64,000 nucleotides of DNA, from NCBI GenBank assembly GCA_035546855.1, contig DASZVY010000034.1:20195-84194 (forward strand), read 5' to 3'. Below, piece after piece: positions 3,223 to 22,498 of this stretch (position 1 is its first letter; every line of letters begins with the position of its first letter). The translations under genes and the position numbers were made by a program. This DNA comes from Nitrobacter sp. GTDB lineage: Bacteria; Pseudomonadota; Alphaproteobacteria; Rhizobiales; Xanthobacteraceae. The notes below the pieces were generated by a model, which made no database searches, was not told the origin of the DNA, and saw only the letters and a list, made by a program, of their open reading frames with translations.

Positions 3223-5211
3223 TCATTGCGGTTCGACGACAACGACCACCGCGTTGCGCTCGACGGTTTCGCCCGCTCGGCAGTTCACGGCGGTGACCAT
3301 GCCGTCGATCTCACTGCTGACGCGCAACTCCATCTTCATCGACTCGAGCACGACCGCAATATCACCGGCCTTGACCCGATCGCCGACGGCGACATTGACC
3401 TTCAGGATCATCCCCATCATCGGCGCCCGAAGCTGACCGCTGGCCTCGGCTGCCGCACTGATGTAGGTGAGATAGGGGACGGCGGCGAAGCTGTGCGTCC
3501 CATGGCGGTCGTGAACATGGATCGTCTGGTCGTGCTGGACGATGCGGACGGTCTCGCGGCGCTTGCCGATGACCGCCGTGAACCTGTCATCGGCGAGCGC
3601 GATCAGCGCGACCGCCAGTTTTTGATCGTTGACGCCGACAACCATCGCCCCATCGGGCTGCAACGGGCCAAACCGGATTTCCGCGCTGGCGCCGCCCTGG
3701 GCCAGATGAAGGATCGGAATCGGCGACAGGCCGTCGCCGCCGGCGGTCATTTGCCATCCGGTCAGGCTCCGGGACTGCCACGGGTTTGCCACAACGTGCG
3801 GGCGCTGCCGCAGCATCCAAAAATATGCGCCAAGGGCGAGGGCTTCGACCGCCGGATCGGCGGCCGGGTCGATCAGTTCACCGATGACGTCATCGATCAG
3901 CCGGGTGTGGAATGCCGCCCGACGCGTTGCGGGCAGATCGATCAAGCGCTTGAGAAAATCCTGATTGGTCGTGACCCCGAAGATCGACGTGTCGTCGAGC
4001 GCCTGCGCCAGCCGATCCAGAGCTTCGTCGCGTGATGCGGCATGCGTGATCAGCTTGGCCAGCATCGAGTCGTAATAGGGCGTGACGACGGACCCGTTTT
4101 CGATCCCGGTTTCGATGCGCACCCCGTCCGCAGGAAAACAGGCGTGCGCGATCCGTCCTGTGCTCGGCAGGAAGTTGTTGGCCGGATCTTCGGCGCACAA
4201 CCGCGCCTCGACGGCATGACCCGTGCAAATCAGATCGCTCTGCGTGAAGGGAAGGCCCTTGCCGCAAGCGATGTCCAGCATCAGTTCGACAATATCGACT
4301 CCCGTGATCATCTCGGTGACGGGGTGTTCCACCTGCAGTCGCGGATTCACTTCGAGAAAGTAATAATCCTCACCGCTGAGGATGAACTCGACGGTGCCGA
4401 CGCCACGATAGTTCAACCGCTTGCCAAGCCGAACCGCGTCCGCAGCCATGCGGTCGCGCAAGCCCGCGGGCAGGTTGGCGGCGGGCGCCTCTTCGATCAC
4501 CTTCTGATGGCGACGCTGTAACGAGCATTCGCGCTCGAACAGGTGGATGACGTCGCCTTTGCCGTCGCCCGCGATCTGGATTTCGATATGCCGCCCGTGC
4601 GCGATCAGCTTTTCGACGATGAGGCCGGCAGAGCCGAACGAGTTCCTGGCTTCGCGCATGGCCGACTCGATTTCATCAGCGATGCCATCGAAGGATGTGA
4701 CGACGCGCATGCCCTTGCCGCCGCCGCCGGCCGCGGCTTTCAACATCACCGGCAGGCCGATCTCGCGGACGATGCGTTCGACCTCAGCCTTGTCCTCGCT
4801 CGGCGCGGTGCTGCCCGGAATGATCGGAACGCCGGCGGCCTGGGCTTCCTGTTTGGCGAGCGCCTTGTCGCCGAGGCGCTCGATCACGTCTGACGTCGGA
4901 CCGATGAACACGAGCCCGGCGGCCTCGACCGCGCGGGCGAAGGCCGGGTTCTCCGCCAGAAAGCCGAACCCGGGATGGATCGCCTGCGCGCCCGTCATTC
5001 TCGCGGCTTCGATGACGGTATCGATGCGCAGATAGCTTTCGGATGCGGGCGCGCCACCGATCGCGATGGATTCCCCGATCGCCTTCACATGAAGCGCATC
5101 GGCATCGGCCGATGAGTGCACGCCGGCGACGGCAACGCCGAGACGGCGGCAGGTGCGGGCGATCCGGCAGGCGATTTCGCCGCGATTGGCGATGAGGATT
5201 TTATCGAACAC
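3223..5211 (-). CDS. Acyl-CoA carboxylase alpha subunit (biotin carboxylase plus biotin carboxyl carrier domain)
   Basis: GTG start. N-terminus MFDKILIANRGEIACRIARTCRRLG is the biotin carboxylase signature. C-terminal biotinylation motif LESMKMEL. 662 aa matches methylcrotonyl/geranyl-CoA carboxylase alpha length. Confidence 0.9.
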   Translation of the reverse strand: MFDKILIANRGEIACRIARTCRRLGVAVAGVHSSADADALHVKAIGESIAIGGAPASESYLRIDTVIEAARMTGAQAIHPGFGFLAENPAFARAVEAAGLVFIGPTSDVIERLGDKALAKQEAQAAGVPIIPGSTAPSEDKAEVERIVREIGLPVMLKAAAGGGGKGMRVVTSFDGIADEIESAMREARNSFGSAGLIVEKLIAHGRHIEIQIAGDGKGDVIHLFERECSLQRRHQKVIEEAPAANLPAGLRDRMAADAVRLGKRLNYRGVGTVEFILSGEDYYFLEVNPRLQVEHPVTEMITGVDIVELMLDIACGKGLPFTQSDLICTGHAVEARLCAEDPANNFLPSTGRIAHACFPADGVRIETGIENGSVVTPYYDSMLAKLITHAASRDEALDRLAQALDDTSIFGVTTNQDFLKRLIDLPATRRAAFHTRLIDDVIGELIDPAADPAVEALALGAYFWMLRQRPHVVANPWQSRSLTGWQMTAGGDGLSPIPILHLAQGGASAEIRFGPLQPDGAMVVGVNDQKLAVALIALADDRFTAVIGKRRETVRIVQHDQTIHVHDRHGTHSFAAVPYLTYISAAAEASGQLRAPMMGMILKVNVAVGDRVKAGDIAVVLESMKMELRVSSEIDGMVTAVNCRAGETVERNAVVVVVEPQ

Positions 5212-5229: not shown

Positions 5230-6837
5230 TCACATCCGCAGCACGCCGAAATGGGTCGGCTGCGCGGGGAGGCGGCCGGCGAGATCGAGCAGGAGCGCCA
5301 TCGTCTGCCGCGTCTCCAGCGGATCGATCACCATGTCGCACCAGGTGTTGCGGGCGAAGTTGTAGGCGCTCGCGAAGTCCTCGAAGTGCTGGCGCACCGG
5401 CGCGCGATAAGCCTCGCGCTCCTCTTCGGTCCAACTTGTGCCGTCACGCTTGTGCGCTTCGTCCTTCACCATGGCGAGCGTGTTGGCGGCCTGATCCGGC
5501 CCCATGATCGCCGAGCGTCCGTTCGGCCACATCATCATCGCGTTGGCCCTCATAGGCCGGCCGCACATCGACATGTAGCCGGCGCCGTAGGAATTGCCGA
5601 TGATCAGCGTGTATTTCGGCACGTCGGCGCTGGCCATTGCCGTGATCATCTTGGCGCCGTCCTTGGAGATGCCGCCTTCCTCGGCGGCGCGGCCCACCAT
5701 GAAGCCGGTGACGTCGGCCATGAACAAGAGCGGGATGTCGCGCTTGCAGCACAGGTCGATGAAGTGCGTCGCCTTCAGCGCCGACTCCGAGAACAGCACG
5801 CCGTTGTTGCAGATGATGCCGATCTCGAAGCCCATGATGCGGGCGAAGCCGGTGATCAGTGTGTCGCCATAGAGCGGCTTGAATTCGTGGAATTCACTGT
5901 CATCGACGAGACGCGCCACGATCTCGCGATTGTTGGTCGGGACGCGCGGATCGGCGCTGATCAGGCCGTAGATGTCGGCGGGATCGTAGCGCGGCGCGCG
6001 CGGCTGCGCGATGTCCCAGCGCTGGGTCGGAATGTCGCCGAGGTTGGCGACGATGTCGCGGGTGATGGCGATGGCGTGGCTGTCATTCTCCGCCAGATGA
6101 TCGGTGACGCCGCTGATGCGGCTGTGCATCTCGCCGCCACCGAGTTCCTCGACGCCGACTTCCTCTTTGGTCGCGGCATAGACCAGTTGCGGACCGCCGA
6201 GGAACATGGCGCCCTGATTGCGGACGATGACCGTCTCGTCGCACAGCGCCGGCATGTAGGCGCCGCCGGCGGTGGAAGGGCCGTGCACGACAGCGATCTG
6301 CGGTATGCCTTCGCCGGACATGCGAACCTGGTTGTAGAAGATCGAGCCGAACTGGCCTTCGTCGGGGAAGATATTGGGCTGGTCGGGCAGGTTGGCGCCG
6401 CCGGATTGCACCAGCGTGACGCAGGGCAGACGATGCTGCCAGGCGAAGCGTTGCGCGCGCACATGCTTCTTGCAGGTGATGCCGTAGTAGGTGCCGCCTT
6501 TCACCGTCGCGTCGTTGGCGATCACCATGCAGGGTCGGCCGGACACGATGCCGACGCCGGTAATGATGCTGCCGCCGGGAGGAACGCCTTCATAAAGACC
6601 TTCGCCGGCCAATTGGCAGAACTCGAGGAACGGCGAGCCGGGGTCGAGCAGCGCGGTGATCCGCTCGCGCGGCAGCAATTGCTTGCGCTCCTTGTGCAGC
6701 CTGCGTGCCCGCTCCGGGCCGCCGAGCACCGCGGCGGCGCGGCGCTTGTGCAGGTCGGCGATCCGCGCGTCGTAGACTTGACGGTTGCGGCGATATTCGT
6801 CGCTCCCGGTGGAGATGTCGGATTTCAGAATGGCCAT
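5230..6837 (-). CDS. Acyl-CoA carboxylase beta subunit (carboxyltransferase, methylcrotonyl/geranyl-CoA carboxylase type)
   Basis: ORF 5230..6996. The internal ATG at 6837 (MAILKSDISTGSDEY) gives about 535 aa. Carboxyltransferase similarity runs throughout (IANDATVKGGTYY, VVHGPSTAGGAYMPA). Confidence 0.9.
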   Translation of the reverse strand: MAILKSDISTGSDEYRRNRQVYDARIADLHKRRAAAVLGGPERARRLHKERKQLLPRERITALLDPGSPFLEFCQLAGEGLYEGVPPGGSIITGVGIVSGRPCMVIANDATVKGGTYYGITCKKHVRAQRFAWQHRLPCVTLVQSGGANLPDQPNIFPDEGQFGSIFYNQVRMSGEGIPQIAVVHGPSTAGGAYMPALCDETVIVRNQGAMFLGGPQLVYAATKEEVGVEELGGGEMHSRISGVTDHLAENDSHAIAITRDIVANLGDIPTQRWDIAQPRAPRYDPADIYGLISADPRVPTNNREIVARLVDDSEFHEFKPLYGDTLITGFARIMGFEIGIICNNGVLFSESALKATHFIDLCCKRDIPLLFMADVTGFMVGRAAEEGGISKDGAKMITAMASADVPKYTLIIGNSYGAGYMSMCGRPMRANAMMMWPNGRSAIMGPDQAANTLAMVKDEAHKRDGTSWTEEEREAYRAPVRQHFEDFASAYNFARNTWCDMVIDPLETRQTMALLLDLAGRLPAQPTHFGVLRM

Positions 6838-6848
6838 GCGGGACGGTC

Positions 6849-8012
6849 CTAGTAACTGCGCGGCAAGCCCATCACGCGCTCGCCGATGTAATTGAGCAGC
6901 ATCTCGCGATTCAGCGGCGCGGTCTTGAGCAGCCGGACCAGCGGGTAGATGTCGAAGATGCCATATTCCCTCGTGAAGCCGTTGCCGCCGTGGCACTGCA
7001 GCGCGACGTCAACGGCCTTGGTGCCGGCGTCGGCCGCCGCCAGCTTGGCCATGTTGGCGAACTCGCCGGCTTCGCGGCCCTGATCGAACACCCATGCCGC
7101 CTTCAGCGTCATCAGCGACGCCAGTTCGATGTCGGTATAGGCGCTGGCCAGCGGGTGCTGCAGGCCCTGATAGGAGCCGATCGGCGCGTTGTTGAAGACC
7201 TTGCGCTCGCTGGCATACGCGACCGCGCGATTGAGCGCGAAACGGCCGAGCCCGCAGCAGATCGAGCCGACCAGGATGCGTTCCGGGTTGAGACTCTTGA
7301 ACAGGATTTCGAAGCCGCGATCGATCTCGCCAACAATGTCCTCGGGGCCGAGATCGACATCGTCGAAGAACAGTTGCCATTGGGTTTCGGGAGCGGGGAT
7401 ACTGACCGGGATGTATTGCTTGGTGACGCCTTTCGCCTTGAGGTCGACCACGAACAGCGTGAAGCCATCGGTCTTCCGCGTCACCTCGGCATGCGGGATC
7501 GTGCGGGTGACCACCAGCGCGTAATCGGAGCCATCGGCATCGGTGATAAACGTCTTCTGGCCATTGAGAGAAAAGCGATTGCCGTTGCGTCTCGCCAGCG
7601 TGATGATGCGCATGGAATTGGTGCCGGCGTCCGGTTCGGTGATGGCGAAACAGAAGCGGGTCCTGCCGGCGCAGGCATCGGGCAGATAGCGTCGTTTCTG
7701 CTGCTCGCTGCCGTATTTGGCGATGAAGCCGAGGCTCATGGTCGCCCCGACCACGAGATTGAGCAGCGGAATGCCATTGTTGGACATCCCTTCGAGAAAC
7801 AGGTGCATCTCGGTCATGCCCTGACCGGCGCCGCCGTATTGCTCCGGCACCATCATGCCGACGAAGCCGTCGTCCGCCACGCGACGATAGAGCGCTTCGG
7901 GAAACTCGCGCTTGTCGGCGCATTCCATCCAGTATCTGCGATCGTACTGCTTGGCGACCGAATTGCCGTAATCGAGGATCTGTTGCTGCTCATGCGTCAG
8001 GTCGAAATTCAT
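6849..8012 (-). CDS. Acyl-CoA dehydrogenase
   Basis: ORF 6849..8123. ATG at 8012 (MNFDLTHEQQQILDY) gives 387 aa. ACAD N-, middle and C-terminal domain pattern (CFAITEPDAGTNS, QCHGGNGFTREY). Confidence 0.9.
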   Translation of the reverse strand: MNFDLTHEQQQILDYGNSVAKQYDRRYWMECADKREFPEALYRRVADDGFVGMMVPEQYGGAGQGMTEMHLFLEGMSNNGIPLLNLVVGATMSLGFIAKYGSEQQKRRYLPDACAGRTRFCFAITEPDAGTNSMRIITLARRNGNRFSLNGQKTFITDADGSDYALVVTRTIPHAEVTRKTDGFTLFVVDLKAKGVTKQYIPVSIPAPETQWQLFFDDVDLGPEDIVGEIDRGFEILFKSLNPERILVGSICCGLGRFALNRAVAYASERKVFNNAPIGSYQGLQHPLASAYTDIELASLMTLKAAWVFDQGREAGEFANMAKLAAADAGTKAVDVALQCHGGNGFTREYGIFDIYPLVRLLKTAPLNREMLLNYIGERVMGLPRSY

Positions 8013-8140
8013 CCAAAAAAACCCTTTTGCGCGTCCCTTGCCGTCAAACTCCCGCAAGCCGTCGCCATCCTCACATCCTGTCCCGGCGTCTGCCATCTTC
8101 GGGCAGAAGAAACCGAATTGCAATCTGACGACCTTAAAAA

Positions 8141-8156
8141 TCTAACATTTGTTAGA
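8141..8156. promoter_or_regulatory. Operator-like palindrome TCTAACAttTGTTAGA (perfect 7-bp arms)
   Basis: Read directly from the sequence. It is an AT-rich island in the intergenic region upstream of the acyl-CoA dehydrogenase/carboxylase operon. One of five copies in the window. Confidence 0.7.
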
Positions 8157-8261
8157 AAACGACCTGAAGCTTTTTCAAGCTGGAGCGCCGGCATCGCGCA
8201 CAGAACGTTGGCCCGCCCGAAGCTCGCGTGCAGCGAACGGCCTTAAAACACCAGCAAAGTG

Positions 8262-9803
8262 CTAGGCTTCTCTGATCCGGCCTTCCAGCTCGTGACGCTG
8301 GACCTTGCCGCTCGTCGAGCGGGGAAAGTCGGCGAATTCGATAAACCGGATTTCCTTGGGACACTTGTATCCGGCGAGATCACGCCGACACATCTCCAGC
8401 AGGTCTCGCTCCGAAACGCCGGAATCGCGCCGCGCCACGAAGGCGACCGGAACCTCGCCCCACTTGACGTCCGCGGCGCGGACCACGGCGGCCTCGGTGA
8501 TGCGGGGATCGCTCATGAGGACGCGCTCGATCTCGGCCGGATAGACGTTTTCGCCGCCTGTCTTGATCATGTATTTGGCGCGATCGACGAAATCCAGCGT
8601 GCCGTCCGCATTGCGCCGGAAGACATCGCCCATGTGAAACCAGCCGCCGCGAAAATCGCGGGCGTTTGTCTCGTCGGCTTGCCAGTAACCCGAAAACAAG
8701 GTCGGTCCGCGGATTGCCAGTTCACCGGGAGTCCCCGGCGCGACCTCATTGTCGTCGGGATCGACGAGCTTCACCTCGCACAAGGCGCTTTGCTGCTTGG
8801 AGAGCCGCGTCGGTGTTTCACCGACGGGAATCAGGGCACGAGATGCCGGTGGCAGGCCGGTTTCAGTGGAGCCGAAGCTGTTGAGATAGGGGGCGCCGAG
8901 CAGGGTCGTTACCTCGGACAGGACATGCGGCGGGACGAGGTCGGCCATCGCCCCGCAGCAGACGATGCCTTTGACGGTTGTTCGATGCGAGCGAAGGCCG
9001 GCGACGAAAGCGTCGATCATGCCGGGAATCAGAACCAGCCAGCCGATGGCGTACCGTTCGATGGCCGACAGCATCGGCTCGATCTGAAAACCGTCCACGA
9101 CAATGACGGTTCCGCCGCGCATCAGCGTCGCCAAGGCATGATCCGTCGAGGCCATGTGGAACAGCGGCGCCCAGGCGACAAACGCGTCGAGCGGCCGAAT
9201 GCCGAGTTCGGAAGTGAAGGCCATGCTGCGCGCCACCATGGCACGATGCGAAATGATCGCGCCTTTCGGCAGGCCGGTGGTGCCGCTGGTATAGAGGATG
9301 ACGAGGCCGTCCTCTGGTTCGGCTTTGTCGACTGGCGTCGCCGCATGGTGTTGTCGCAGCAACTGCTCGTAGGGCTCGCCAAGCAGGAGGGTGGTTCGCC
9401 CCGCGCTCGCGGGCTGGTCGAGGTTGCCGATCAGATCGGGTTCGGCAATCACCAGCTTTGGCGATACCAGATCGACGCAATAGGTGAGCTCACGTTTTGA
9501 CAGTCGCCAATTCTGGCATGCGGTGATCACGCCGAGGTTTCCGGCCGCGAGTTCGATCTCGAGATACTCCGGCCTGTTGCGCGAGAGCAGGGCAAGGCGA
9601 TCGCCGCGCTTCAGGCCAAGGCTTACGAGAGCCGACGTCAGCCGTTCGACGCGGTCCGTCAACTCGCCATAGGTGATCCGCCGATCCCGATATTCGATCG
9701 CGATGGACGATCTCTGGATCGAGGCGCGGGTGCGAAACAGCGCGCTGACCGTCGGTGTCGCACCGGCGGCTTTCGTCGGGGAATCTTCGGATTTGTCGGC
9801 CAT
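8262..9803 (-). CDS. AMP-dependent acyl-CoA ligase (medium/long-chain fatty-acid-CoA ligase family)
   Basis: ORF 8262..9842. ATG at 9803 (MADKSEDSP). Motifs YTSGTTGLPKGA and GWFHMGD, plus C-terminal PRSTSGKVQR. Confidence 0.85.
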   Translation of the reverse strand: MADKSEDSPTKAAGATPTVSALFRTRASIQRSSIAIEYRDRRITYGELTDRVERLTSALVSLGLKRGDRLALLSRNRPEYLEIELAAGNLGVITACQNWRLSKRELTYCVDLVSPKLVIAEPDLIGNLDQPASAGRTTLLLGEPYEQLLRQHHAATPVDKAEPEDGLVILYTSGTTGLPKGAIISHRAMVARSMAFTSELGIRPLDAFVAWAPLFHMASTDHALATLMRGGTVIVVDGFQIEPMLSAIERYAIGWLVLIPGMIDAFVAGLRSHRTTVKGIVCCGAMADLVPPHVLSEVTTLLGAPYLNSFGSTETGLPPASRALIPVGETPTRLSKQQSALCEVKLVDPDDNEVAPGTPGELAIRGPTLFSGYWQADETNARDFRGGWFHMGDVFRRNADGTLDFVDRAKYMIKTGGENVYPAEIERVLMSDPRITEAAVVRAADVKWGEVPVAFVARRDSGVSERDLLEMCRRDLAGYKCPKEIRFIEFADFPRSTSGKVQRHELEGRIREA

Positions 9804-9880
9804 GCTTCCACCCTGGCGATCGTTTCTTCCGGCGCCGTTCACGCGCCCGACTTGCGGCGCTTCGCCAAACAGTCTTAAAT

Positions 9881-9896
9881 TCTAACATCTGTTCGA
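9881..9896. promoter_or_regulatory. Operator-like palindrome TCTAACAtcTGTTCGA (one arm mismatch)
   Basis: Lies in the divergent promoter region between the ligase (start 9803, minus) and the enoyl-CoA hydratase (start 9919, plus). Confidence 0.65.
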
Positions 9897-9918
9897 ATAA
9901 ATGTAAGGACCAATCGAG

Positions 9919-10728
9919 ATGTCGGGACGCTACAATGCTTACACCAAGCTGAAGCTGGATTATCCCTCGAAACGTATCCTCCGGATCACTTTCGATCGAC
10001 CGGAGACCTACAACTCGGTCGATGCGGAAACCCACACCCAGCTCACCCACATCTGGCGGGACATCAACGACGATCCCGATATCAACGCGGTGATCGTCAC
10101 CGGCGCGGGCAAGGCTTTTTCCGCAGGCGGTGATTTCGAGTTGATCAAGAGTATCCTCGACAATCCGGTCGCGCGCATGTCGACCTGGAAGGAAGCAAAG
10201 GATCTCGTTTACAACGTCATCAACTGCAACAAGCCGATCATCTCGGCGATCAACGGTGTCGCGGTCGGAGCGGGTCTCGTCGTCGGCATCCTCGCGGATG
10301 TCTCGATTTGCGGCAAGTCGGCCCGGATCGTCGACGGGCATACGCGGCTCGGCGTCGCCGCGGGAGACGTCGCCTGCATCATATGGCCGCTGTTGTGCGG
10401 TCTCGCCAAGGCGAAATATTACCTGCTGACCTGCAAGCCGCTGTCGGGCGAGGAAGCAGAGCGGATCGGATTGGTGTCGCTGTGTGTCGAGGATGCCGAT
10501 TTGCAGAAGATCGCGCTCGAAACCGCGGAGGATCTGGCGGGCGGCGCGCAAAGCGCGATCCGCTGGACCAAATATGCGCTGAACAACTGGCTGCGCGTCA
10601 ACGGGCCGCTGTTCGATACCTCGACTGCGCTGGAGATGCTCGGCTTCACCGGCGTCGAAGCGCGCGAGGGGCTTGCCTCGCACCTCGAGAAGCGGAAGCC
10701 GAATTTTCCCCCGGAGTGCCCGGTCTGA
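9919..10728 (+). CDS. Enoyl-CoA hydratase/isomerase (crotonase) family protein
   Basis: 269 aa. Crotonase pattern [16 protein letters not shown] ... [12 protein letters not shown]. Confidence 0.85.
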
Positions 10729-10769
10729 GGTTTCGGAGCGGCGGTGCCCCGCTTGGGAGGGCGTCCCGC

Positions 10770-12743
10770 TCAGGAGTTTGCGATCTGCCGCCGCAGCTTT
10801 TCGACGGCATCCGGATTGGAGAGGGCGGAGAGGTCGCCCGGATCCCGGTTCTCGAACACCGCACGGAGCACCCGCCGCATGATCTTCATGTTGCGGGTGC
10901 GGGGGAGGTCATCCACGAACACGATGCGTTCGGGCCGATACGACGCTCCCATGCTCGTGACCATGGCGCCCGAAAGCTCTGTTGCGAGCTGAGACCCGAC
11001 GTCCACGCCGGGCATGGGAACGCAGGCGCAGACGATGGCGGAGCCCTTCACCGGATGCGGAAGGCCGAAGATGGCGGCTTCGGAGACCTTCCCCGTGTCG
11101 ATCAGGATGCCTTCAAGCTCCGCCGGCCCCGTGCGCTTTCCGGAAATCTTGATGGTGTCGTCGGAGCGACCGAGAATGTAGTAGAGGCCGTCCTCGCCAC
11201 GCATGGCGAAGTCGCCGTGAACCCACAGGTTCGGCAGTGTGTTCCAGTAGCTTTCAATGTAGCGCTCGTCGGCCTGCCAGAGGCTTTTGGTAAGCCCGAT
11301 CGACGAATGACGCAGCACCAATTCGCCGACTGCGCCGGGCGGCAGGGTGTTGCCGTCATTGTCGACGATGTCGGCGCCGACCCCAAGGGCCGGGCGCGCA
11401 AACGACCCCGGGTTCATCGGATGGTTCGGTGTGCCGATCAGGATGCAGCCGCCGACCTCGGTGCCACCTGAAATATTGATGATCGGGATTCGAGACTTGC
11501 AGACATGGGTGAAGAACCACAGCCATGGCGCCGCCGTCCAGGCCTCGCCGCCCGACGTCGTGATCCGAAGCGTGGAGAGATCGTGACGCTCGACCTCTTC
11601 GGCGCCGTAGCGCATCAGGCTGCGGACGATGGTCGGGGAGACCCCGAGGTAACTGACTTTGTGATCGGCAATCAGCCGCCAGAAGCGCCCTTGGTCCGGA
11701 TAATCGGGTGTGCCCTCCGCGATGAGCAGGCTCGCGCCTGCGAAACTCGGGATGCAGGCGCACATGGCGCCGACCATCCAGCCCATGTCGCTCATGAAGA
11801 AGAAACGGTCGGTTGATTTGAAATCGCCGCAGATAATGATGTCGCGCGTCACCATCGATCCGATGAAGCCGATATGGGTCCAGATGCAGCCCTTGGGCTC
11901 GCCGGTCGTGCCCGACGTATAGAGCAGGATGGCGGGATCCTCGGCCTGCATCTCGACGGTCGGCATGGAATCCTCCACGTCAACGACGACGTCTCGCCAC
12001 CAATGGTCGCGGCCATCGCGCATCGGCGTTTCGATATCGAGGTTGCCGCGCTCGGCGACGATGACGTGCCGGACCGACGGAGCCTGCTCCAGCGCCGTGT
12101 CGAGCACGGACTTCAGCGGCGCGCCGACGCCGCGCCGCCAGGTGCCGTCGGCGGTGATGACCGCCTTGGCCTCGCCGTGATTCAGGCGCGAGCGGATCGG
12201 ACTTGGACCGAACCCCGAAAACAGCGGCATCACGATCGCGCCGATCTTCAGGATGGCGAAGAAGGCGACGAACGTCTCGGGCAAATTCGGCATGTAGATC
12301 GCGACGACATCACCGCGGCCGACGCCGAGGCGGAGGAGAGCCTGCGCCAGGCGATCCGTCTCGGAATCAAGATCGCGATAGGTGAGGGAGCGCTGCTCGC
12401 GCCGGTCCTCGCCTTCCCAGACCAGGAACGTCTGATCCCAGACCGAGGTGCCGCGATGCCGGTCGATGCAGTTGAGGACAATATTGGTTGTTCCTCCGAC
12501 ACACCACCGGGCCCGCGGCTGCCCGCGCGACGTATCGAGCATCCGGTCGCAAGGTCGATAGAATCGCACGTCGCAAAACCTGAAGACCTCCTCCATGAGC
12601 CAGGCCGGATCAGCCTCGGCCTGTCGCGCCAGGCTGTCGTAGTCAGGGTGCCCCGTCGCTCGCAGGAACGCGGTAAGATTGCTGTTGGCCACCAGATCGG
12701 CAGGAGGCGTCCAGATGTATGAGGTGCCGTCTGTCATCGCCAT
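10770..12743 (-). CDS. Acetyl/acetoacetyl-CoA synthetase-family acyl-CoA synthetase
   Basis: ORF 10770..12833. About 657 aa from the ATG at 12743 (MAMTDGTSYIWTPP). Motifs YTSGTTGEPKG and WWRDV. The start is uncertain. The ATG at 12833 is possible, but it would place the palindrome at 12802 inside the coding region. Confidence 0.8.
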   Translation of the reverse strand: MAMTDGTSYIWTPPADLVANSNLTAFLRATGHPDYDSLARQAEADPAWLMEEVFRFCDVRFYRPCDRMLDTSRGQPRARWCVGGTTNIVLNCIDRHRGTSVWDQTFLVWEGEDRREQRSLTYRDLDSETDRLAQALLRLGVGRGDVVAIYMPNLPETFVAFFAILKIGAIVMPLFSGFGPSPIRSRLNHGEAKAVITADGTWRRGVGAPLKSVLDTALEQAPSVRHVIVAERGNLDIETPMRDGRDHWWRDVVVDVEDSMPTVEMQAEDPAILLYTSGTTGEPKGCIWTHIGFIGSMVTRDIIICGDFKSTDRFFFMSDMGWMVGAMCACIPSFAGASLLIAEGTPDYPDQGRFWRLIADHKVSYLGVSPTIVRSLMRYGAEEVERHDLSTLRITTSGGEAWTAAPWLWFFTHVCKSRIPIINISGGTEVGGCILIGTPNHPMNPGSFARPALGVGADIVDNDGNTLPPGAVGELVLRHSSIGLTKSLWQADERYIESYWNTLPNLWVHGDFAMRGEDGLYYILGRSDDTIKISGKRTGPAELEGILIDTGKVSEAAIFGLPHPVKGSAIVCACVPMPGVDVGSQLATELSGAMVTSMGASYRPERIVFVDDLPRTRNMKIMRRVLRAVFENRDPGDLSALSNPDAVEKLRRQIANS

Positions 12744-12801
12744 CCACGGTTGCTGAGCGTACCTCAAAGCTAGTCCCGCGCGATCGGCGGCGTCAACAGA
12801 A

Positions 12802-12817
12802 TCTAACGGTTGTTCGA
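12802..12817. promoter_or_regulatory. Operator-like palindrome TCTAACGgtTGTTCGA (degenerate copy)
   Basis: Lies between the divergent synthetase (minus) and transglutaminase-like (plus) genes. Same spacing and arms as the other copies. Confidence 0.55.
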
Positions 12818-12887
12818 AAGTAGAAGCGGGCATGCGCCTGTGTTAGTATTTTGTTCGGCTCGATTGTTCCACGACGAGTGCTCCAGC

Positions 12888-13571
12888 ATGATTCCAGACG
12901 ATTCTCTCGATAAATTCCTGTCGCCGACCTCCTATATCGATAGCGATTCATCCGAAGTGCGCGGCTTCGTCGGCAGCGTTCTCGGGAATGCTGAAGGGCT
13001 GTCCGACAAGGAGAAAGCCATTCGCCTGTTCGACGCCGTGCGGGACCGGATCAAGTACGATCCTTTTCATATTGGGGTGTCCGAGGATGACTATCGCGCC
13101 AGCCGCATTGCCACGAAGGCCGCCAACTGGTGCGTTCCCAAGGCCATCCTGCTGACGGCAGCGCTGCGCGCGGCCGGAATGCCGGCGGCGGTTGGTTTTG
13201 CCGACGTCAGGAATCACCTGAATACGCCGAAGCTCGCCGATCTCATGGGAACCGATCTTTTCATCTACCATGGCTATGCCGCGCTCTGGCTGGACGGACG
13301 CCCGTTCAAGGTCACGCCCGCATTCAATACGGAACTGTGCGAGCGGTTTGGCGTGAAGCAGTTGATCTTCGACGGCGAGAGCGATGCGCTGTTCCACGAA
13401 TTCGATACGCACAATCACCGCCACATGGAGTACGTCAACGACCGCGGCTGGTTCGCCGACCCGCCGATCGCGGCGCTTCTGAAAGACTTTCGCGTGACCT
13501 ATCCGAAACTCGTGGCGATGAATGGCAGCCGCCAAGAGGTCGATGACGCGATGTTCCGTCCGACATCCTGA
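12888..13571 (+). CDS. Transglutaminase-like cysteine-protease-fold protein
   Basis: ORF 12810..13571. ATG at 12888 (MIPDDSLDKF). Candidate catalytic Cys context ANWCVPKAILL and His context FIYHGYAALWLDG, as in transglutaminase-core proteins. Confidence 0.65.
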   Translation: MIPDDSLDKFLSPTSYIDSDSSEVRGFVGSVLGNAEGLSDKEKAIRLFDAVRDRIKYDPFHIGVSEDDYRASRIATKAANWCVPKAILLTAALRAAGMPAAVGFADVRNHLNTPKLADLMGTDLFIYHGYAALWLDGRPFKVTPAFNTELCERFGVKQLIFDGESDALFHEFDTHNHRHMEYVNDRGWFADPPIAALLKDFRVTYPKLVAMNGSRQEVDDAMFRPTS

Positions 13572-13584
13572 GCACAACCGGCGG

Positions 13585-14760
13585 TCATTGCTGCGATTGA
13601 GTCTTGGCGTATTGAACCGCGATGCGACCGACTTTCTCGCGCGCGATGACCAGCTTTTGAATTTGAGCCGTCCCGTCGCCGATCTGGAGGCCCATCACGT
13701 CGAGATAACGCTGATGGAATGGAAGGTCGGTGGTGTAGCCGTAGTGCCCGTGCGTGAGCAGGCATTGGTGAATGATCTCGCACGTCGTTTTCGGGATGTA
13801 CCACTTGCACATCGCAGCTTCCGCAGTATGGGCCAGCCCGCAGTCGCGGAGCGACAGGGTGTAGTAGCAGAGCTGTCGCATCATGGTGAGTTGGGTCTCG
13901 GCCTCGGCCAACGGGAAGCTCACGCCCTGGTATTGCGCGATCGGCCGTCCAAACGCAGTCCGTTGGCTTGTGTACGCCCAGGTTTCGTCAAGCGAGGCTT
14001 GCGCGGGGCCGATGCATTCGAGGCCGATCAGCGCGCGGCTGTAGTCGAACCCCGCCATGATCTTGGAAAAGCCCTTGTTCTCCTCCGCCATCAGGCATTC
14101 GGCCGGAACGAAGACGTCGTCGAGAAAAATCGAGCCGCGTCCGACCGGCTTGGTGCCGATATCGTCGAAATGGGTTCGCGTAACGCCGCGCTGGTTCATA
14201 TCGACAAGGAAGGCGCTGACTCCGCGCGCGCCATCCTCGACTTTTCCGGTCCGCGCGAAAATGACGGCGGCCTCGCACTGGTCCGACAGGCTGATCGATG
14301 TTTTTTCGCCGTTGAGGCGGTAGCCGTTTCCTGTTTTTTCCGCGCGAAGGATCAGATTTGCGGCATCCGAACCGCCGCGGGGTTCGGTCAGGCCGAGGCC
14401 GACGAGGGCGTCTCCGCGCGTGATCCTGGGAAGCCACTCCTGCGCGACGTCGGCAGACGCATATTGGGCGATCATGCCGCCGACGAGCGATGCAAGCAGG
14501 GGAGCGTAGCTGGCATTGAAATCAGCGTAGGCGATCTGTTCGATGATGACTCCGGCGGTGAGGCTGTTGACGCCGAGGCCGCCATATTGCTCGGGCAGGT
14601 CGGGGCCGATCAGGCCCAGGGATCCCATTTCCTTCAGGATCGAGCGATCGAGATGATGACCGGTCGCCCGCTTCAGGTAGTGCGGCGCGAGCTTCTCTTT
14701 CGCAAATCGGGCGGCGGTCTCGCGAAAGGCTTCCTGCTGCTCGCTGAGCGCATAGTCCAT
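13585..14760 (-). CDS. Acyl-CoA dehydrogenase
   Basis: 391 aa. ACAD pattern (GLGLTEPRGGSDA, THGHYGYTTD). Confidence 0.9.
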   Translation of the reverse strand: MDYALSEQQEAFRETAARFAKEKLAPHYLKRATGHHLDRSILKEMGSLGLIGPDLPEQYGGLGVNSLTAGVIIEQIAYADFNASYAPLLASLVGGMIAQYASADVAQEWLPRITRGDALVGLGLTEPRGGSDAANLILRAEKTGNGYRLNGEKTSISLSDQCEAAVIFARTGKVEDGARGVSAFLVDMNQRGVTRTHFDDIGTKPVGRGSIFLDDVFVPAECLMAEENKGFSKIMAGFDYSRALIGLECIGPAQASLDETWAYTSQRTAFGRPIAQYQGVSFPLAEAETQLTMMRQLCYYTLSLRDCGLAHTAEAAMCKWYIPKTTCEIIHQCLLTHGHYGYTTDLPFHQRYLDVMGLQIGDGTAQIQKLVIAREKVGRIAVQYAKTQSQQ

Positions 14761-14801
14761 GCCTGCTTCCCTGCGAAAGATTCCTGATTTATTCGAACTA
14801 T

Positions 14802-14817
14802 TCTAACAATTGTTAGA
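14802..14817. promoter_or_regulatory. Operator-like palindrome TCTAACAatTGTTAGA (perfect; with flanks TTCTAACAATTGTTAGAA it is an 18-bp perfect palindrome)
   Basis: Lies 42 nt upstream of the acyl-CoA dehydrogenase start at 14760. Confidence 0.7.
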
Positions 14818-14903
14818 AACGAAGCAATGTCAGTGAGAGGGCCGCGCATGACGCCCGATACGATGCGAGCTGTCGAGAAGGGCGACCGAGCCGCGCAGGC
14901 ACT

Positions 14904-15761
14904 TTAGTCATGGTTCGGCTTGCCGTCGCCGCGGGTGCGCGTCGCGAATTTGATGGCATCGATCATCTGGCGCGCGTCGTGCGCCAGATGCAGCGTCTCC
15001 CCGCCGTCGATGTACCATTCTTCGCCGGTGACGAATTTTCCAAGCGGAGAACTCAGGAAAATGATGGCGGCGGCGACGTCTTCGACGTCTCCCATTCGCC
15101 CCAGAACGTTCCTGTTCAGCTTGAGCCACTGTTCGGGGGCGATCGGATAATGGCCCATGCCTTCGGTCTTGACGGTGCCCGGAGCCACGCAGTTCAGCCG
15201 GATGCCGAACTCGGCCCATTCAAAGGCCAGCGTCTTCATCATGCCGAGAACGCCGCCGCGCGCCGCGGCCGTATGCACAAAGCCGCTCAGGCCGGAGCGA
15301 ATGCAAGCAGTCACGAAAACGATCGAGCCGCCATTGCCGAACATGAAGTGATCGGCGACGGCCTTGGTCATTTGCCACGATCCGATCAGGTTATTGCGGA
15401 TCACGGCCTCGAACCCCTTGTTGTTGAGGTCGCGTGCCGGGCTAACGAACTGGCCGCCGGCATTGTTGACGAGAATATGCAACCCGCCGAACGTTTGCCG
15501 GATGCGCTGCATCGTCGCTTCGATCCCCTCGGGATCGCGGATGTCGGCCGAAATCGCCAGCGCTTCGCCGCCGGAGTCGCGAATCTCTTTGGCGCAGGAT
15601 TCGATGGGTTCGCTGCGCCGTCCAAGGACGACCACGCGCGCACCGCATTGCGCCATTTCCAGCGCAGTCGCGCGGCCCATTCCCGTACCTCCGCCGGTCA
15701 CGAGCGCGACCTGATCCTTTAAGAGATCGGGGGCAAAGCGCATTTTCGACATTTGAGGCAT
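14904..15761 (-). CDS. Short-chain dehydrogenase/reductase (2,4-dienoyl-CoA / enoyl-CoA reductase-like SDR)
   Basis: Rossmann motif VTGGGTGMGRA and NNAG. 285 aa. Confidence 0.8.
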   Translation of the reverse strand: MPQMSKMRFAPDLLKDQVALVTGGGTGMGRATALEMAQCGARVVVLGRRSEPIESCAKEIRDSGGEALAISADIRDPEGIEATMQRIRQTFGGLHILVNNAGGQFVSPARDLNNKGFEAVIRNNLIGSWQMTKAVADHFMFGNGGSIVFVTACIRSGLSGFVHTAAARGGVLGMMKTLAFEWAEFGIRLNCVAPGTVKTEGMGHYPIAPEQWLKLNRNVLGRMGDVEDVAAAIIFLSSPLGKFVTGEEWYIDGGETLHLAHDARQMIDAIKFATRTRGDGKPNHD

Positions 15762-15793
15762 GGTCGGATTTCCAGTTGAACGGGCGCGGTCAT

Positions 15794-15809
15794 TCTAACA
15801 GATGTTAGA
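15794..15809. promoter_or_regulatory. Operator-like palindrome TCTAACAgaTGTTAGA (perfect)
   Basis: Lies in the divergent region between the SDR (start 15761, minus) and the acyl-CoA dehydrogenase (start 15907, plus). A related pair of half-sites, TCGAACA-N6-TGTTAGA, lies at 15880..15899. Confidence 0.7.
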
Positions 15810-15906
15810 TTTCCGGAAAGGCCGCCGGAGACTCGCTTCGAACTGGTTATTTCGATCGTGAATGCTAAAGTAGCGCGTATCGAACATCCGACTGTTAGAG
15901 TGGCCG

Positions 15907-17085
15907 ATGACTGCGCAAACTGACGGCACGCCGACCGGCTCGATTTATTTTGGGGAGGAGCACGAACTGCTTCGGACGCAGGTCCGGCGCTTCGTGGAAG
16001 AGGAGATCAAGCCCCATGGTTTGAAGTGGGAGCAGGACGGCATGGTGCCGCGCGACGTGTTGCGGCGCATGGGCGAACTCGGCTTTTTCGGAATCCGCTA
16101 CGCGGCCGAGTACGGCGGCTCCGGGATGGATACGCTGGCGACCGTCGTGCTTGCGGAAGAGTTGGGGCGGTCGACATTCTCGGGCGTCGCCATCACGGCG
16201 TTGGTTCACACCGATATGGCGTCGGTTCATATCTACAATTCCGATTCTCGGGATCTCAAGCAGCGTTTCATGCCGGACGTGATCGCCGGTCGCAAAATCG
16301 TTGCCGTGGGCGTGACGGAGCCCGGCGCGGGATCTGACGTCAAGAGCATTCGGACAACCGCGCGTCGCGACAGCGACAGCTATGTTCTCAACGGCAGCAA
16401 GCTGTTCATCACGAATGGCGTGCATGCCGATCTCTATTGCATCGCGGCGGTCACCAATCCTGATGCGCGACCGTCGCAGCGGCTGTCGATGATTCTCGTC
16501 GAGAAGGGAACGCCGGGCTTTCGCGTTGGCCGCGAACTCGACAAGCAGGGCTGGCGGTCTTCCGACACGGCCGAACTGGTGTTCGAGGATTGCCGCGTCC
16601 CCGCGACGAGCCTGCTGGGGGAAGAGGGACGTGGCTTCTACGCCATCATGCGTAACTTCCAGAACGAGCGGATCGTCATTGGCGCGATGGCCATGGGAGA
16701 AGCGCAGGCCGCGATCGAACTGACGCTGGATTGGGTTACGCAGCGTCAGGCTTTCGGCGAACCGCTATGGGCCAAGCAGACCATTCGGCAGCGGATGGCG
16801 ATGCTGGCCGCGAAAGTCGAGGCCGGCCGCCAACTGGTCTATCACGCGGCATGGCTCGCCTCGCGCGGGGTCGATGCCACCAAGGAAGTCTCGATGGTGA
16901 AGGCCTATTGCGGCGAGCTTGTCAACGAAGTGATGTATCACTGTCTCCAGTTCCATGGAGGTATGGGATACATGCGTGAAAGTACGATCGAGCGCATGTC
17001 GCGCGATGCGCGGGTCCAGAACATCGGTGGCGGTGCGACGGAAGTGATGCTGGAAGAGGTCGCCAAGCGCATGACCGGTGCTTGA
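15907..17085 (+). CDS. Acyl-CoA dehydrogenase
   Basis: 392 aa. ACAD pattern (GVTEPGAGSDV, QFHGGMGYMRE). Confidence 0.9.
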   Translation: MTAQTDGTPTGSIYFGEEHELLRTQVRRFVEEEIKPHGLKWEQDGMVPRDVLRRMGELGFFGIRYAAEYGGSGMDTLATVVLAEELGRSTFSGVAITALVHTDMASVHIYNSDSRDLKQRFMPDVIAGRKIVAVGVTEPGAGSDVKSIRTTARRDSDSYVLNGSKLFITNGVHADLYCIAAVTNPDARPSQRLSMILVEKGTPGFRVGRELDKQGWRSSDTAELVFEDCRVPATSLLGEEGRGFYAIMRNFQNERIVIGAMAMGEAQAAIELTLDWVTQRQAFGEPLWAKQTIRQRMAMLAAKVEAGRQLVYHAAWLASRGVDATKEVSMVKAYCGELVNEVMYHCLQFHGGMGYMRESTIERMSRDARVQNIGGGATEVMLEEVAKRMTGA

Positions 17086-17126: not shown

Positions 17127-17879
17127 CTACCTTCTCGCAACGCCGTCGAAAATCAGCAGCTCCGTGCGCCGCGCGAGTTTGCGCACGTCCTCCTTCCTGC
17201 TGAAGCTGAACCATTCGACGGTCCAGTTGAGCGATCCCAGCACGAATATACGGAGCGGAACGATTTCGATGTCGGCGCGGATCTCGCCGGCCCGCCGGGC
17301 ATCGAGAAACAGCCGATCCCAATATTTGGCGTAGGCGCGGCGCAGCGGCCGATGCCGTTTTTTGAGATGTTCGGGAAGCTGCCCATAGATACGGATGTTC
17401 GCGGAGGTGAAGTCGCTCGCTTCCAGCAAGCCTGCCAGATGCGTTTCAATGGCGAGACCGATCCGCCGGCGGTGCGAGACGTCGCCGGCCCTTTTCAAAG
17501 CCGCCTTGACGGCTTCGAAAATTCCGTGAAGGCCACGGTCGAGAACTTCGTCGAGGATCGCTTCCTTCGAATCGAAATAATAATAAATGCTGCCGGCCTT
17601 GATTTTGGCCATGCCGGCGATTTGGCGTAGCGTCGTGGCGGAATAACCCTGCTGCCGAAAGAGCTTCGCGGCCGCCTCGAGGATGGTGTCGCGGGATTTC
17701 TCGGATTTTGAGACCGGTGTGCCGTTCGTTGCTGTCGCGCCGATATCATCTTCGCTGGCGGACGACTTGCGGATTTTTCGGCGTATCGGCAAGGGCGATC
17801 GGGCTCGCGCTGCTACTTTTCGCTTTCGATACGCGGATCCTGTGGCTATTAGCGTACGCCGCGTCGGGTGGGTGCTCAA
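17127..17879 (-). CDS. TetR/AcrR-family transcriptional regulator
   Basis: HTH region TILEAAAKLFRQQGYSATTLRQIAGMAKIKAGSIYYYFDSKEAIL. It has a long basic N-terminal extension, so the true start may be further downstream. Confidence 0.8.
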   Translation of the reverse strand: MSTHPTRRTLIATGSAYRKRKVAARARSPLPIRRKIRKSSASEDDIGATATNGTPVSKSEKSRDTILEAAAKLFRQQGYSATTLRQIAGMAKIKAGSIYYYFDSKEAILDEVLDRGLHGIFEAVKAALKRAGDVSHRRRIGLAIETHLAGLLEASDFTSANIRIYGQLPEHLKKRHRPLRRAYAKYWDRLFLDARRAGEIRADIEIVPLRIFVLGSLNWTVEWFSFSRKEDVRKLARRTELLIFDGVARR

Positions 17880-18027
17880 AATACCTCGGTCTCGTCAATA
17901 AGAGCGGCAAGGATAGTTTGTCGGATCGAATCTAGGCGAAAATTCCGCTGTGCGCTACTGTCCGATCAATCCGCGACGCCGGGCGTTGATCCCGGTAGAG
18001 CCACCTGCAGAAAATAGGAACTGGTCC

Positions 18028-19212
18028 ATGGCATCGGAGTCGTCAATAGTGACCGCGCAAGCGATGCTTCCGGACGATGGAACGTCCGGCGCGCTGGTGG
18101 GGCGCGTCTGGCTGCCGGAAGTTGCGGGGCCCGCCGTCGTCGCCGTCAGGAGCGACGGGGTTTTCGATGTCACCGCGCGCGTCCCGACGGTGAGCGCACT
18201 GTGCGATGTCGACGATCCGGCGGACGCGTTGAGGCAGACTGAAGGCAGGCGGATCGGCGATCTCGCAGCGATTGTCGCGAACACGCCGCCCGATCGTCGT
18301 GACGCGACGAAGCCATGGCTGCTGGCGCCGCTCGATCTTCAGGTGCTGAAGGCCGCCGGCGTCACCTTCGCAATTTCGATGCTGGAGCGGGTGATCGAGG
18401 AGCGGGCGCGCGGGAATCCCGCATCCGCCGAGGCGATCCGCAAGGAGGTGGTGCGGCTGGTGGGCGACGACCTGTCCCGGTTGAAGCCGGGATCGGCCGA
18501 GGCGATGCGGCTCAAGCAAGTGTTGGTCGAACAGCAGGCCTGGAGCCAATATCTCGAAGTCGGTATCGGTCCCGACGCGGAGGTGTTCACCAAGGCGCCG
18601 GTGCTGTCCGCCGTCGGCACCGGAATGGATGCCGGCCTGCATCCGAAGTCGACCTGGAATAATCCGGAGCCGGAGGTGGTGCTCGCTGTTTCAGGCCGCG
18701 GCCGCATCGTCGGCGCGACGCTCGGCAACGATGTCAACCTGCGCGACTTCGAAGGCCGTTCCGCCCTGCTGCTCTCCAAGGCCAAGGACAACAACGCATC
18801 CTGCGCGATCGGCCCGCTGCTGCGCCTTTTCGACAGGAGTTTCTCGCTCGATGACGTGCGCAAGATGCACGTCGATTTAACGGTGCGAGGGGAGGACGGC
18901 TTCGAGCTCAGCGGTCGTTCGTCGATCGCGCAGATCAGCCGCGACCCCGCCGACCTCGTCGCGCAGACGATCGGGCCGGTGCATCAATATCCCGATGGCT
19001 TCGCGCTGTTCCTCGGCACCATGTTCGCGCCGGTGAAGGACAGGGATGTGCCGGGGCAAGGCTTCACCCACAAACCCGGCGACATCGTCACGATCGCAGC
19101 GCCGCAACTCGGTCGGCTCGTCAATCGCATGCGTCCGAGCGACGAATGCGAGCCGTGGACGTTCGGCATCTCGGCGCTCATGAAAAACCTGGCGGCGCGC
19201 AAGGTGCTTTGA
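18028..19212 (+). CDS. Fumarylacetoacetate hydrolase-family protein
   Basis: ORF 17950..19212. ATG at 18028 (MASESSIV) is preceded by AGGAA. The C-terminal half resembles the FAH fold (NDVNLRDFEG ... GTMFAP). Confidence 0.7.
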   Translation: MASESSIVTAQAMLPDDGTSGALVGRVWLPEVAGPAVVAVRSDGVFDVTARVPTVSALCDVDDPADALRQTEGRRIGDLAAIVANTPPDRRDATKPWLLAPLDLQVLKAAGVTFAISMLERVIEERARGNPASAEAIRKEVVRLVGDDLSRLKPGSAEAMRLKQVLVEQQAWSQYLEVGIGPDAEVFTKAPVLSAVGTGMDAGLHPKSTWNNPEPEVVLAVSGRGRIVGATLGNDVNLRDFEGRSALLLSKAKDNNASCAIGPLLRLFDRSFSLDDVRKMHVDLTVRGEDGFELSGRSSIAQISRDPADLVAQTIGPVHQYPDGFALFLGTMFAPVKDRDVPGQGFTHKPGDIVTIAAPQLGRLVNRMRPSDECEPWTFGISALMKNLAARKVL

Positions 19213-19249
19213 TCCGGAGACCGCGGATGCCAATCCCGGCGGAGAGGCT

Positions 19250-22354: not shown

Positions 22355-22498
22355 GATGCGGCGCCATTCGTCTTGCGGACGGAATGCGAAGATTCTTCAA
22401 TCCCTTGATAGCATGCGGCAACAGGGACGGCTCCCAAGGAAAGCGTGCAAATCACAGCATTCAAAGTAGCGCGGCAGCGGCACCGTCAGTCGGTTGAT

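Follow-up and report, generated by a model that had tools for sequence, protein, structure and literature searches.

In a 64,000-nucleotide stretch of DNA from Nitrobacter sp. (assembly GCA_035546855.1, contig DASZVY010000034.1, positions 20,195 to 84,194; hereafter the window), five copies of a palindrome lie beside the starts of genes for acyl-CoA metabolism. Comparative sequence analysis indicates that these copies, here designated O1 to O5, are very probably the operators of a TetR-family repressor encoded nearby at 17127-17879. Read in this way, the system is a TetR/operator regulon of a well-known type for a gene set of which we found no description, a result that is solid and not surprising in principle. 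For a conserved acyl-CoA gene set that is widespread in soil Alphaproteobacteria, it supplies a precise operator together with a candidate repressor, and with this operator the regulon can be followed into any genome. The repressor itself could help to find the inducing metabolite or, as was done with AtuR, serve as a biosensor part. The current understanding of this class of regulators is unchanged, but an operator half-site that doubles as an extended -10 element would account for the control of divergent gene pairs by a single small palindrome.

Five copies of a palindrome in an acyl-CoA gene cluster

An earlier note on this DNA had listed five copies of a 16-bp palindrome, three of them perfect, and had seen no full copy outside the region from 8 to 16 kb. 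A search of the window with TCTAACANNTGTTAGA, allowing at most two mismatches, re-found exactly these five matches, at 8141 (no mismatches), 9881 (one), 12802 (two), 14802 (none) and 15794 (none). The chance expectation estimated from dinucleotide-preserving shuffles was 0.01, and none of 100 shuffles gave five matches. Allowing three mismatches added no further match in the window, where 0.23 would be expected. When the window was scanned with a 20-bp weight matrix built from the sites of other genomes, with the window itself excluded, O1 to O5 scored 35.6, 33.6, 28.5, 37.2 and 35.8 bits, respectively, and no other site in the 64 kb reached 8 bits.

The gene map and the local sequence also bore out that every copy is intergenic and lies beside gene starts of the acyl-CoA cluster, in a window with a G+C content of about 62%. 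O1 (AATCTAACATTTGTTAGAAA, 8139-8158) lies upstream of a minus-strand acyl-CoA dehydrogenase/carboxyltransferase/biotin carboxylase operon, flanked by a CoA ligase gene, which stops at 8262, and the acyl-CoA dehydrogenase gene, which starts at 8012. O2 (ATTCTAACATCTGTTCGAAT, 9879-9898) separates the divergent starts of this CoA ligase gene (LIG_B; 9803, minus strand) and an enoyl-CoA hydratase gene (ECH_C; 9919, plus strand). O3 (AATCTAACGGTTGTTCGAAA, 12800-12819) is likewise located between divergent starts, namely those of an acetyl/acetoacetyl-CoA-synthetase-like gene (ACS_D; 12737, minus strand) and a transglutaminase-like gene (TGL_E; 12888, plus strand). O4 (ATTCTAACAATTGTTAGAAA, 14800-14819) is positioned 42 bp upstream of the start of an AliB-like acyl-CoA dehydrogenase gene (ACAD_F; 14760, minus strand), and O5 (ATTCTAACAGATGTTAGATT, 15792-15811) lies between the starts of a short-chain dehydrogenase gene (SDR_G; 15761, minus strand) and a further acyl-CoA dehydrogenase gene (ACAD_H; 15907, plus strand).

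The earlier note had also pointed to a looser pair of half-sites, TCGAACA-N6-TGTTAGA, at 15880-15899. This pair is present, but it received no matrix score, and 11 other genomes show no counterpart in the aligned orthologous intergenic DNA. Because its spacing is wrong and it is missing from these regions, we did not count it as a site, and it is probably no functional operator. Downstream of O3 and before the transglutaminase-like gene, the direct half-site-like hexamers TGTTAG-N4-TGTTCG (12842-12857) were observed, again without a matrix score.

Conservation of the palindrome in related bacteria

To compare the sites across species, 80 loci with 10-kb flanks were fetched via TetR orthologues, using one genome per species (loci are denoted by L and a number). 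Nearly every locus with a TetR protein that is 65-88% identical to that of the window, about 70 in total, carried one to five copies of the motif with at most two mismatches; these loci came from Bradyrhizobium, Rhodopseudomonas and Xanthobacteraceae. Mapping of the window proteins onto the loci showed that the sites follow genes rather than positions, even where transcription units had been reordered, lost or moved beside the TetR gene. The genes downstream of the sites were orthologues of the short-chain dehydrogenase, the AliB-like dehydrogenase, the pair of acetyl-CoA-synthetase-like and transglutaminase-like genes, the crotonase/ligase pair and the dehydrogenase/carboxylase operon, and the median distance of the site centres to the downstream start codons was 38-146 bp. 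In 71 orthologous loci, with about 0.6 Mb of DNA for either side of the TetR gene, 219 matrix matches were located on the acyl-CoA-gene side versus 3 on the other side.

While the existence of the palindrome stood, its length of 16 bp did not. In the aligned sites, each of the two positions flanking the 16-mer on either side carries about 1 bit, and we therefore define the site as the 20-bp palindrome wTTCTAACAnnTGTTAGAAw, which has an unspecified 2-bp centre and a symmetric information content. Some sites in relatives read TCAAACA. In the alignment of orthologous intergenic regions, no block is better conserved than the O5 palindrome, and in 30 distinct orthologous sequences the O3 site is retained between the same two genes. 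A second conserved block in the aligned loci of O5, with the consensus CCGGTTGTATTCGA, occupies the presumed 5' leader of the short-chain dehydrogenase gene, between its start and O5 (15762-15791 in the window).

The position orthologous to O1 often carries two sites at a distance of 17-19 bp in other genomes, while the window has one. Such paired sites before the dehydrogenase/carboxylase operon were found in L006 (17726/17744), L016 (18848/18866), L018 (19532/19550), L020 (19398/19417), L064 (19443/19460) and L102 (9530/9547). Beside O1 itself, the window contains a sequence that resembles a decayed second copy.

The adjacent TetR-family regulator as the candidate repressor

The proposed repressor of O1 to O5 is encoded on the minus strand at 17127-17879 and matches the TetR_N (63.4 bits, cut-off 24) and TetR_C_24 (43.7 bits, cut-off 26.4) domain models, with an additional weak YsiA-like match of its C-terminal domain. 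A TetR helix-turn-helix joined to a helical C-terminal ligand domain, a 20-bp dyad operator and operators in neighbouring promoters are all features of TetR repressors that are seen here. As had been noted before, this gene encodes the only regulator in the block, and we found this to hold within 3-22 kb. Which regulator binds the palindrome had been left open; the comparison of loci points to the adjacent TetR protein and largely settles this question.

Evidence on this point comes from more distant bacteria. In eight distant loci (L074, L076, L071, L080, L113, L131, L140 and L170), the motif lies directly upstream of the gene for a TetR homologue. Such an arrangement is typical of autoregulation, and it ties the TetR subfamily to the motif. 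The distant homologues concerned share 41-56% identity with the window protein, and some are fused double TetRs. In an alphaproteobacterial assembly (L074, TetR 56% identical), the perfect palindrome TTTCTAACGTACGTTAGAAA stands some 45 bp ahead of the TetR start. In Hoeflea (L076), the gene for a fused double TetR has TTTCAAACGGTTGTTAGAAA in front of it, and another site is found between a ligase gene and transglutaminase-like/crotonase genes. In Xenophilus (L080), the site separates a carboxylase operon from a crotonase-TetR operon, and weaker variants of the motif were found at the TetR gene of a Rhodocyclaceae member (L071) and of Variovorax (L077). The recognition helix, KAGSIYY(Y/H)F, is identical in all homologues that were compared.

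The homologues with two tandem TetR units, which have the architecture of Mce3R, are numerous; they consist of about 430 amino acids and are 46-58% identical to the window protein. The double-TetR genes of L076 (9266-10579), L113 (1234-2517), L131 and L140, located on marine or Rhodobacter-like contigs, have the same palindrome on both sides.

In a motif-anchored scan, a metagenome collection was searched with TTCTAACANNTGTTAGAA and the hits were split at 54% G+C. Among the 43 hits with at least 54% G+C, 34 had a homologue of the window cluster (at least 55% identity) within 3 kb, and 18 had a TetR homologue. Conversely, 74 of the 77 low-G+C hits had no cluster homologue near the site, L131 among them having a TetR homologue only. 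Thus, a cluster or TetR homologue was present at four of the 77, three of which are double-TetR loci flanked by the motif. The remaining low-G+C hits are best read as chance matches or unrelated repeats.

These data also bear on the idea that the copies are members of a dispersed repeat family, REP-/MITE-like or satellite, that has no regulatory role. The core of the palindrome does occur in unrelated low-G+C DNA, namely in a 41-bp satellite with 24 copies (L128) and in small-ORF contigs with four to eight copies (L097, L145). In the window and its relatives, however, conservation is confined to the 20 bp and does not reach into the flanks, and the copies stand solely ahead of orthologous genes. 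Together with the lack of cluster homologues near 74 of the 77 low-G+C hits, this makes a repeat family extremely improbable.

The satellite in L128 (5578-6566) consists of 24 tandem copies of the 41-bp repeat, each with GTTCTAACAAACGTTAGAAC; the DNA there has 46% G+C, few ORFs and a poly-A run. This satellite is unrelated and has just the core in common with the sites. In freshwater contigs of about 45% G+C (L097, L145, L166, L186, L084 and L161), four to eight copies of CTAACAAATGTTAG lie between small ORFs in a phage-like layout. These contigs had no match in the phage collection, and the CTAACAAATGTTAG copies could be an unrelated operator or promoter family.

The earlier note had found no motif in front of the TetR gene of the window. 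Indeed, no matrix match of at least 6 bits was detected in the 400 bp upstream of this gene in the window or in 70 further orthologous loci. In this clade, the lack of an operator is a conserved feature rather than missing evidence. It is common, but not universal, for a TetR repressor to have an operator in its own promoter; here, this arrangement is absent from the clade of the window and present in the distant homologues. The intergenic region between the TetR gene and the fumarylacetoacetase-like (FAH) gene has a conserved sigma-70-like promoter and no conserved palindrome. The promoter-like block lies in the 17793-17960 region of the window and is conserved in relatives as TTGACGAAG...CAATAAT. 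As this promoter of its own lacks an operator, the repressor is probably made constitutively.

The same observations raise the possibility that the palindrome is a real operator bound by a regulator encoded elsewhere, while the adjacent TetR protein controls, for example, the divergent fumarylacetoacetase-like gene at 18028-19212. Apart from the palindrome being absent upstream of the TetR gene in the window and the 70 orthologous loci, some motif loci (L094, L117, L149 and L185) had no TetR homologue in the DNA that was fetched. We nevertheless consider this explanation unlikely, since the TetR homologue is the only regulator found repeatedly beside the motif, the palindrome stands directly ahead of the TetR gene in the eight distant loci, the DNA-reading helix is unchanged across homologues, and the region between the TetR and FAH genes has its conserved promoter without a conserved palindrome. 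The linkage of the motif to TetR genes, the palindromes upstream of distant homologues and the fixed recognition helix argue instead for the adjacent TetR as the binding protein. The comparative sequence evidence likewise supports the earlier proposal that one dimeric repressor co-regulates at least five transcription units.

The window TetR protein is 100% identical to a protein from a Nitrobacter sp. metagenome assembly, which places the source of the DNA in the Bradyrhizobium/Nitrobacter family. The ATG that is used by its orthologues (MNPTRR...) is lost in the window, and the frame continues from a TTG at 17879. Because the relatives' ATG is lost and the N-terminus aligns with those of the orthologues, translation probably starts at this TTG; the database record starts at the TTG at 17792. 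The search for solved structures returned 142 TetR relatives, which include Bacillus FadR, KstR2, Mce3R and Fad35R. The structure predicted from a 12-sequence alignment had a mean pLDDT of 55 and is a poor model.

Overlap of the sites with predicted promoters

Read towards the gene, the gene-proximal half-site with its flank is TGTTAGAAT or TGTTAGATT. This corresponds to TG-n-TAGAAT, an extended -10 element; a TAGATT variant of the gene-side TAGAAT also occurs. A consensus promoter scan identified at O2, on the minus strand facing the ligase gene, a -35 element CTTACA, a spacer of 17 nt and a TG-n-TAGAAT that overlaps the site. At O4, TTGCTT is followed after 16 nt by TG-n-TAGAAT, and at L074 TTGCTT likewise abuts the site. 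A weak CTT signal was visible at the expected -35 position. In 81 distinct one-sided sites, where a gene adjoins one side alone, TAnnnT was found on the gene side in 64 cases and on the far side in 35, and position 20 was a T in 89% of these sites versus 44% at the mirror position.

Half-sites that read TGnTAGAAT together with their flank, and a gene side that is more -10-like than the far side, could mean that the motif acts chiefly as a promoter element, an extended -10 core that works symmetrically in both directions and has no dedicated repressor. This is very improbable. The positions C4, A6, A7 and C8 and their mirror positions form no part of a -10 element and are nonetheless invariant, the whole dyad is retained even where there is a gene on one side only, and the motif is restricted to one gene set, as is evident from the window scan at the 8-bit threshold. 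To our knowledge, housekeeping -10 elements are never so strictly conserved.

A role of the symmetry at the RNA level was rejected as well. As RNA, the sites fold weakly (hairpins of -2 to -7.8 kcal/mol), and changes in one half-site, such as in TCGAACA...TGTTAGA, are not compensated in the partner. Since, in addition, Rfam gave no family match at the sites, we read the palindrome at the DNA level and discarded an RNA structure or terminator. A terminator-like hairpin after the ligase gene (8265-8251) is at chance level, eight such hairpins having been found where 9.2 were expected.

We propose that a dimer of the TetR protein binds each of the 20-bp sites. The gene-side half-site would serve as the extended -10 element, and the other half-site would fill the spacer towards the -35 element. 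The dimer would then cover the -10 element and the spacer and exclude RNA polymerase from the promoter core. Because the half-site doubles as an extended -10 element, blocking of the promoter core is the probable mode of repression. The repressor gene itself would be transcribed from its own operator-free promoter. Release would most likely be brought about by a CoA thioester or an acid of the pathway, which resembles the beta-oxidation of a branched or alicyclic carboxylic acid. Bacillus FadR, KstR2, Mce3R and Fad35R respond to acyl-CoA or CoA thioesters and, judged from the TetR family only, a CoA thioester is the most likely class of effector.

Several points weigh against this interpretation. 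The 81 one-sided sites are related by descent and not independent, which makes their asymmetry supportive rather than a formal test. The -35 elements are weak at most sites, and the half-sites that face ECH_C and TGL_E, TCGAAT and TCGAAA, are poor -10 elements, for which reason these two genes may use other promoters. The set of loci anchored on TetR partly builds the linkage in, a bias that the motif-anchored scan reduces but does not remove, and at some motif loci, for example L117, a TetR gene is missing from the surrounding 10-15 kb. Finally, most TetR repressors regulate themselves, and the operator is absent at the TetR gene in this clade.

More speculatively, the palindrome may be a self-contained module, a two-way extended -10 core combined with a TetR operator, that stands ahead of almost every gene of an undescribed regulon for the breakdown of branched or alicyclic acids via a methylcrotonyl-CoA-carboxylase-type enzyme. 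Conservation of this regulon would extend across Bradyrhizobiaceae, Rhodobacter-like and betaproteobacterial lineages, with TetR proteins, either single or fused in tandem, as its regulators and with autoregulation given up in Bradyrhizobiaceae. We advance this broader picture tentatively, as possible rather than probable.

Comparison with known regulators

Searches of the literature with the motif strings and for TetR/acyl-CoA regulation in Bradyrhizobium and Rhodopseudomonas returned no description of the motif or the regulon, the RegPrecise collections lying outside this comparison, so that a prior in silico prediction is possible. The nearest functional analogue is BkaR/Fad35R. In the solved structures, chain 4g12, which we take to be Fad35R, matched the window TetR with 39.6 bits, indicating a distant relation. 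In mycobacteria, BkaR/Fad35R (Rv2506, MSMEG_4718) is a TetR repressor encoded beside a cluster of accD1-accA1, acyl-CoA dehydrogenase and CoA ligase genes (PMC3920632). It binds as a dimer to a palindrome with a 16-bp core at several promoters, its operator being GTTAnT-N4-AnTAAC, and it is autoregulated (PMC3920632). The systems are further alike in that the carboxyltransferase of the window is closest to AccD1 of Mycobacterium tuberculosis and the crotonase to mycobacterial EchA15. They differ in that the present sites read CTAACAnnTGTTAG, whereas the BkaR core has its half-sites in the opposite order, and in that BkaR regulates itself.

PsrA, which governs fatty acid degradation in Pseudomonas and Shewanella, is a TetR-family repressor of many beta-oxidation promoters with the motif (G/C)AAAC-N2-4-GTTT(G/C), and this motif has the most similar core, sharing the layout AAC-A-NN-T-GTT with the sites described here; the TCAAACA variants in relatives add to the likeness. 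The conserved T of CTAAC and the TTC/GAA flanks set the present sites apart. The window TetR is not a PsrA orthologue (NF053516, 46 bits versus a cut-off of 300), and PsrA is known from Gamma- and Betaproteobacteria (PMC5343134).

AtuR of Pseudomonas, the regulator for acyclic terpenes and naphthenic acids, is a TetR repressor that binds an inverted repeat overlapping the -10 and -35 elements of a divergent promoter pair, with fatty or naphthenic acids as the releasing ligands (bioRxiv 10.1101/2025.09.24.678253). Its operator is TACAAACCAAGCGCTTGCTTGGTA, with one or two sites known (bioRxiv 10.1101/2025.09.24.678253). The AtuR-controlled cluster also includes biotin carboxylase, acyl-CoA dehydrogenase, crotonase and ligase genes and follows a similar logic, but its operator is unrelated and there are five sites here. 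Moreover, the carboxyltransferase of the window is nearer to the methylcrotonyl-CoA type than to the geranyl-CoA type, and no atuA- or atuB-type genes were found among the cluster proteins of the window.

FadR of Bacillus (YsiA) and KstR2 are both among the solved relatives and resemble the window protein in the TetR_N and TetR_C_24 domains and in the weak YsiA-like match. One source annotates the orthologues as 'cholesterol catabolism regulator', and L117 contains genes that are typical of side-chain degradation. The FadR and KstR2 motifs appear to differ from the motif found here. Assignment to Bacillus-type FadR was rejected (NF053878, 59.8 bits versus a cut-off of 200), as was assignment to KstR/KstR2 (29.6 bits with the KstR model versus a cut-off of 280; 41.8 bits with the KstR2 chains), and curated models ruled out an AcuR orthologue. 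The tandem double TetRs of the Mce3R type are like many of the 46-58% identical homologues, while the window protein is a single TetR unit. The Irr iron control element (ICE) of Bradyrhizobium, TTTAGAA-N3-TTCTAAA, was considered because the hexamers TTCTAA and TTAGAA are common to both motifs. It was rejected: the window contains one match with three mismatches, which is at chance level, and the present sites have the opposite half-site order and an invariant AAC/GTT.

Genes downstream of the sites

The five sites may serve up to eight transcription starts. The predicted targets are genes for three acyl-CoA dehydrogenases, two CoA ligases, a crotonase, a short-chain dehydrogenase, a transglutaminase-like protein and a methylcrotonyl-CoA-carboxylase-type enzyme. 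The O1 operon begins with the gene of the acyl-CoA dehydrogenase ACAD_A (6849-8012, minus strand). It is followed on the same strand by the methylcrotonyl-CoA-carboxylase-type carboxyltransferase gene CTb (5230-6996), with a true start probably near 6837, and by BCa (3223-5211), which encodes a biotin carboxylase/biotin carrier protein with CPSase_L_D2, Biotin_carb_N/C, Biotin_lipoyl and BT_MCC_alpha domains. The similarity of CTb was highest to AccD1 of M. tuberculosis (627 bits), followed by human MCC beta (588) and the geranyl-CoA carboxylase beta subunit (424). Further genes on this strand, for a LivG-like ABC ATPase (2162-2989) and a long AMP-binding protein (214-2220), may form the tail of the O1 operon. 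The gap at 2989-3223 contains no matrix site, and in other lineages (L074, L077, L079, L175 and L188) these genes adjoin the TetR gene and the motif.

From O2, the acyl-CoA ligase gene LIG_B (8262-9803, minus strand) and the enoyl-CoA hydratase/isomerase gene ECH_C (9919-10728, plus strand) would be controlled; ECH_C matches PRK07327 with 416 bits and mycobacterial EchA15 with 300 bits, and is 90-95% identical across the orthologous loci. The candidate targets of O3 are the acetate/acetoacetate-CoA-ligase-like gene ACS_D (10770-12737, minus strand) and TGL_E (12888-13571, plus strand). O4 precedes ACAD_F (13585-14760, minus strand), the product of which resembles cyclohexanecarboxyl-CoA dehydrogenase (TIGR03207, 544 bits with a cut-off of 575). 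O5 would serve the short-chain dehydrogenase/reductase gene SDR_G (14904-15761, minus strand) and possibly ACAD_H (15907-17085, plus strand), which starts 105 bp downstream of the O5 centre. The membership of ACAD_H in the regulon is the least secure, as another gene separates it from the site in several genomes. In the motif-anchored scan, SDR_G was the most frequent neighbour of the motif (19 loci), followed by TGL_E (14 loci).

In other lineages, the motif also precedes paired acyl-CoA dehydrogenases and, in L111 and L176, CoA transferases. In L117, it heads an operon of ChsH2-like OB-fold, thiolase-like and MaoC hydratase genes (6812-9304) as well as an operon of a transglutaminase-like gene, two acyl-CoA dehydrogenases and a crotonase (9636-13937) with an adjoining ETF alpha/beta pair; no TetR gene was present in the 15 kb fetched for this locus. 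As the motif precedes ChsH2-like, thiolase-like, MaoC and CoA transferase genes elsewhere, the wider regulon would be one for the beta-oxidation of a bulky or branched acyl chain.

Beyond the TetR gene, the segment at 18001-22400 has a G+C content of 0.68-0.71, compared to about 0.62. It carries the fumarylacetoacetase-like gene (18028-19212) and a gene for a UvrD-type helicase of 1034 amino acids, the N-terminus of which (HADLHIHS...) resembles a PHP domain. This segment may represent foreign DNA beside the cluster.

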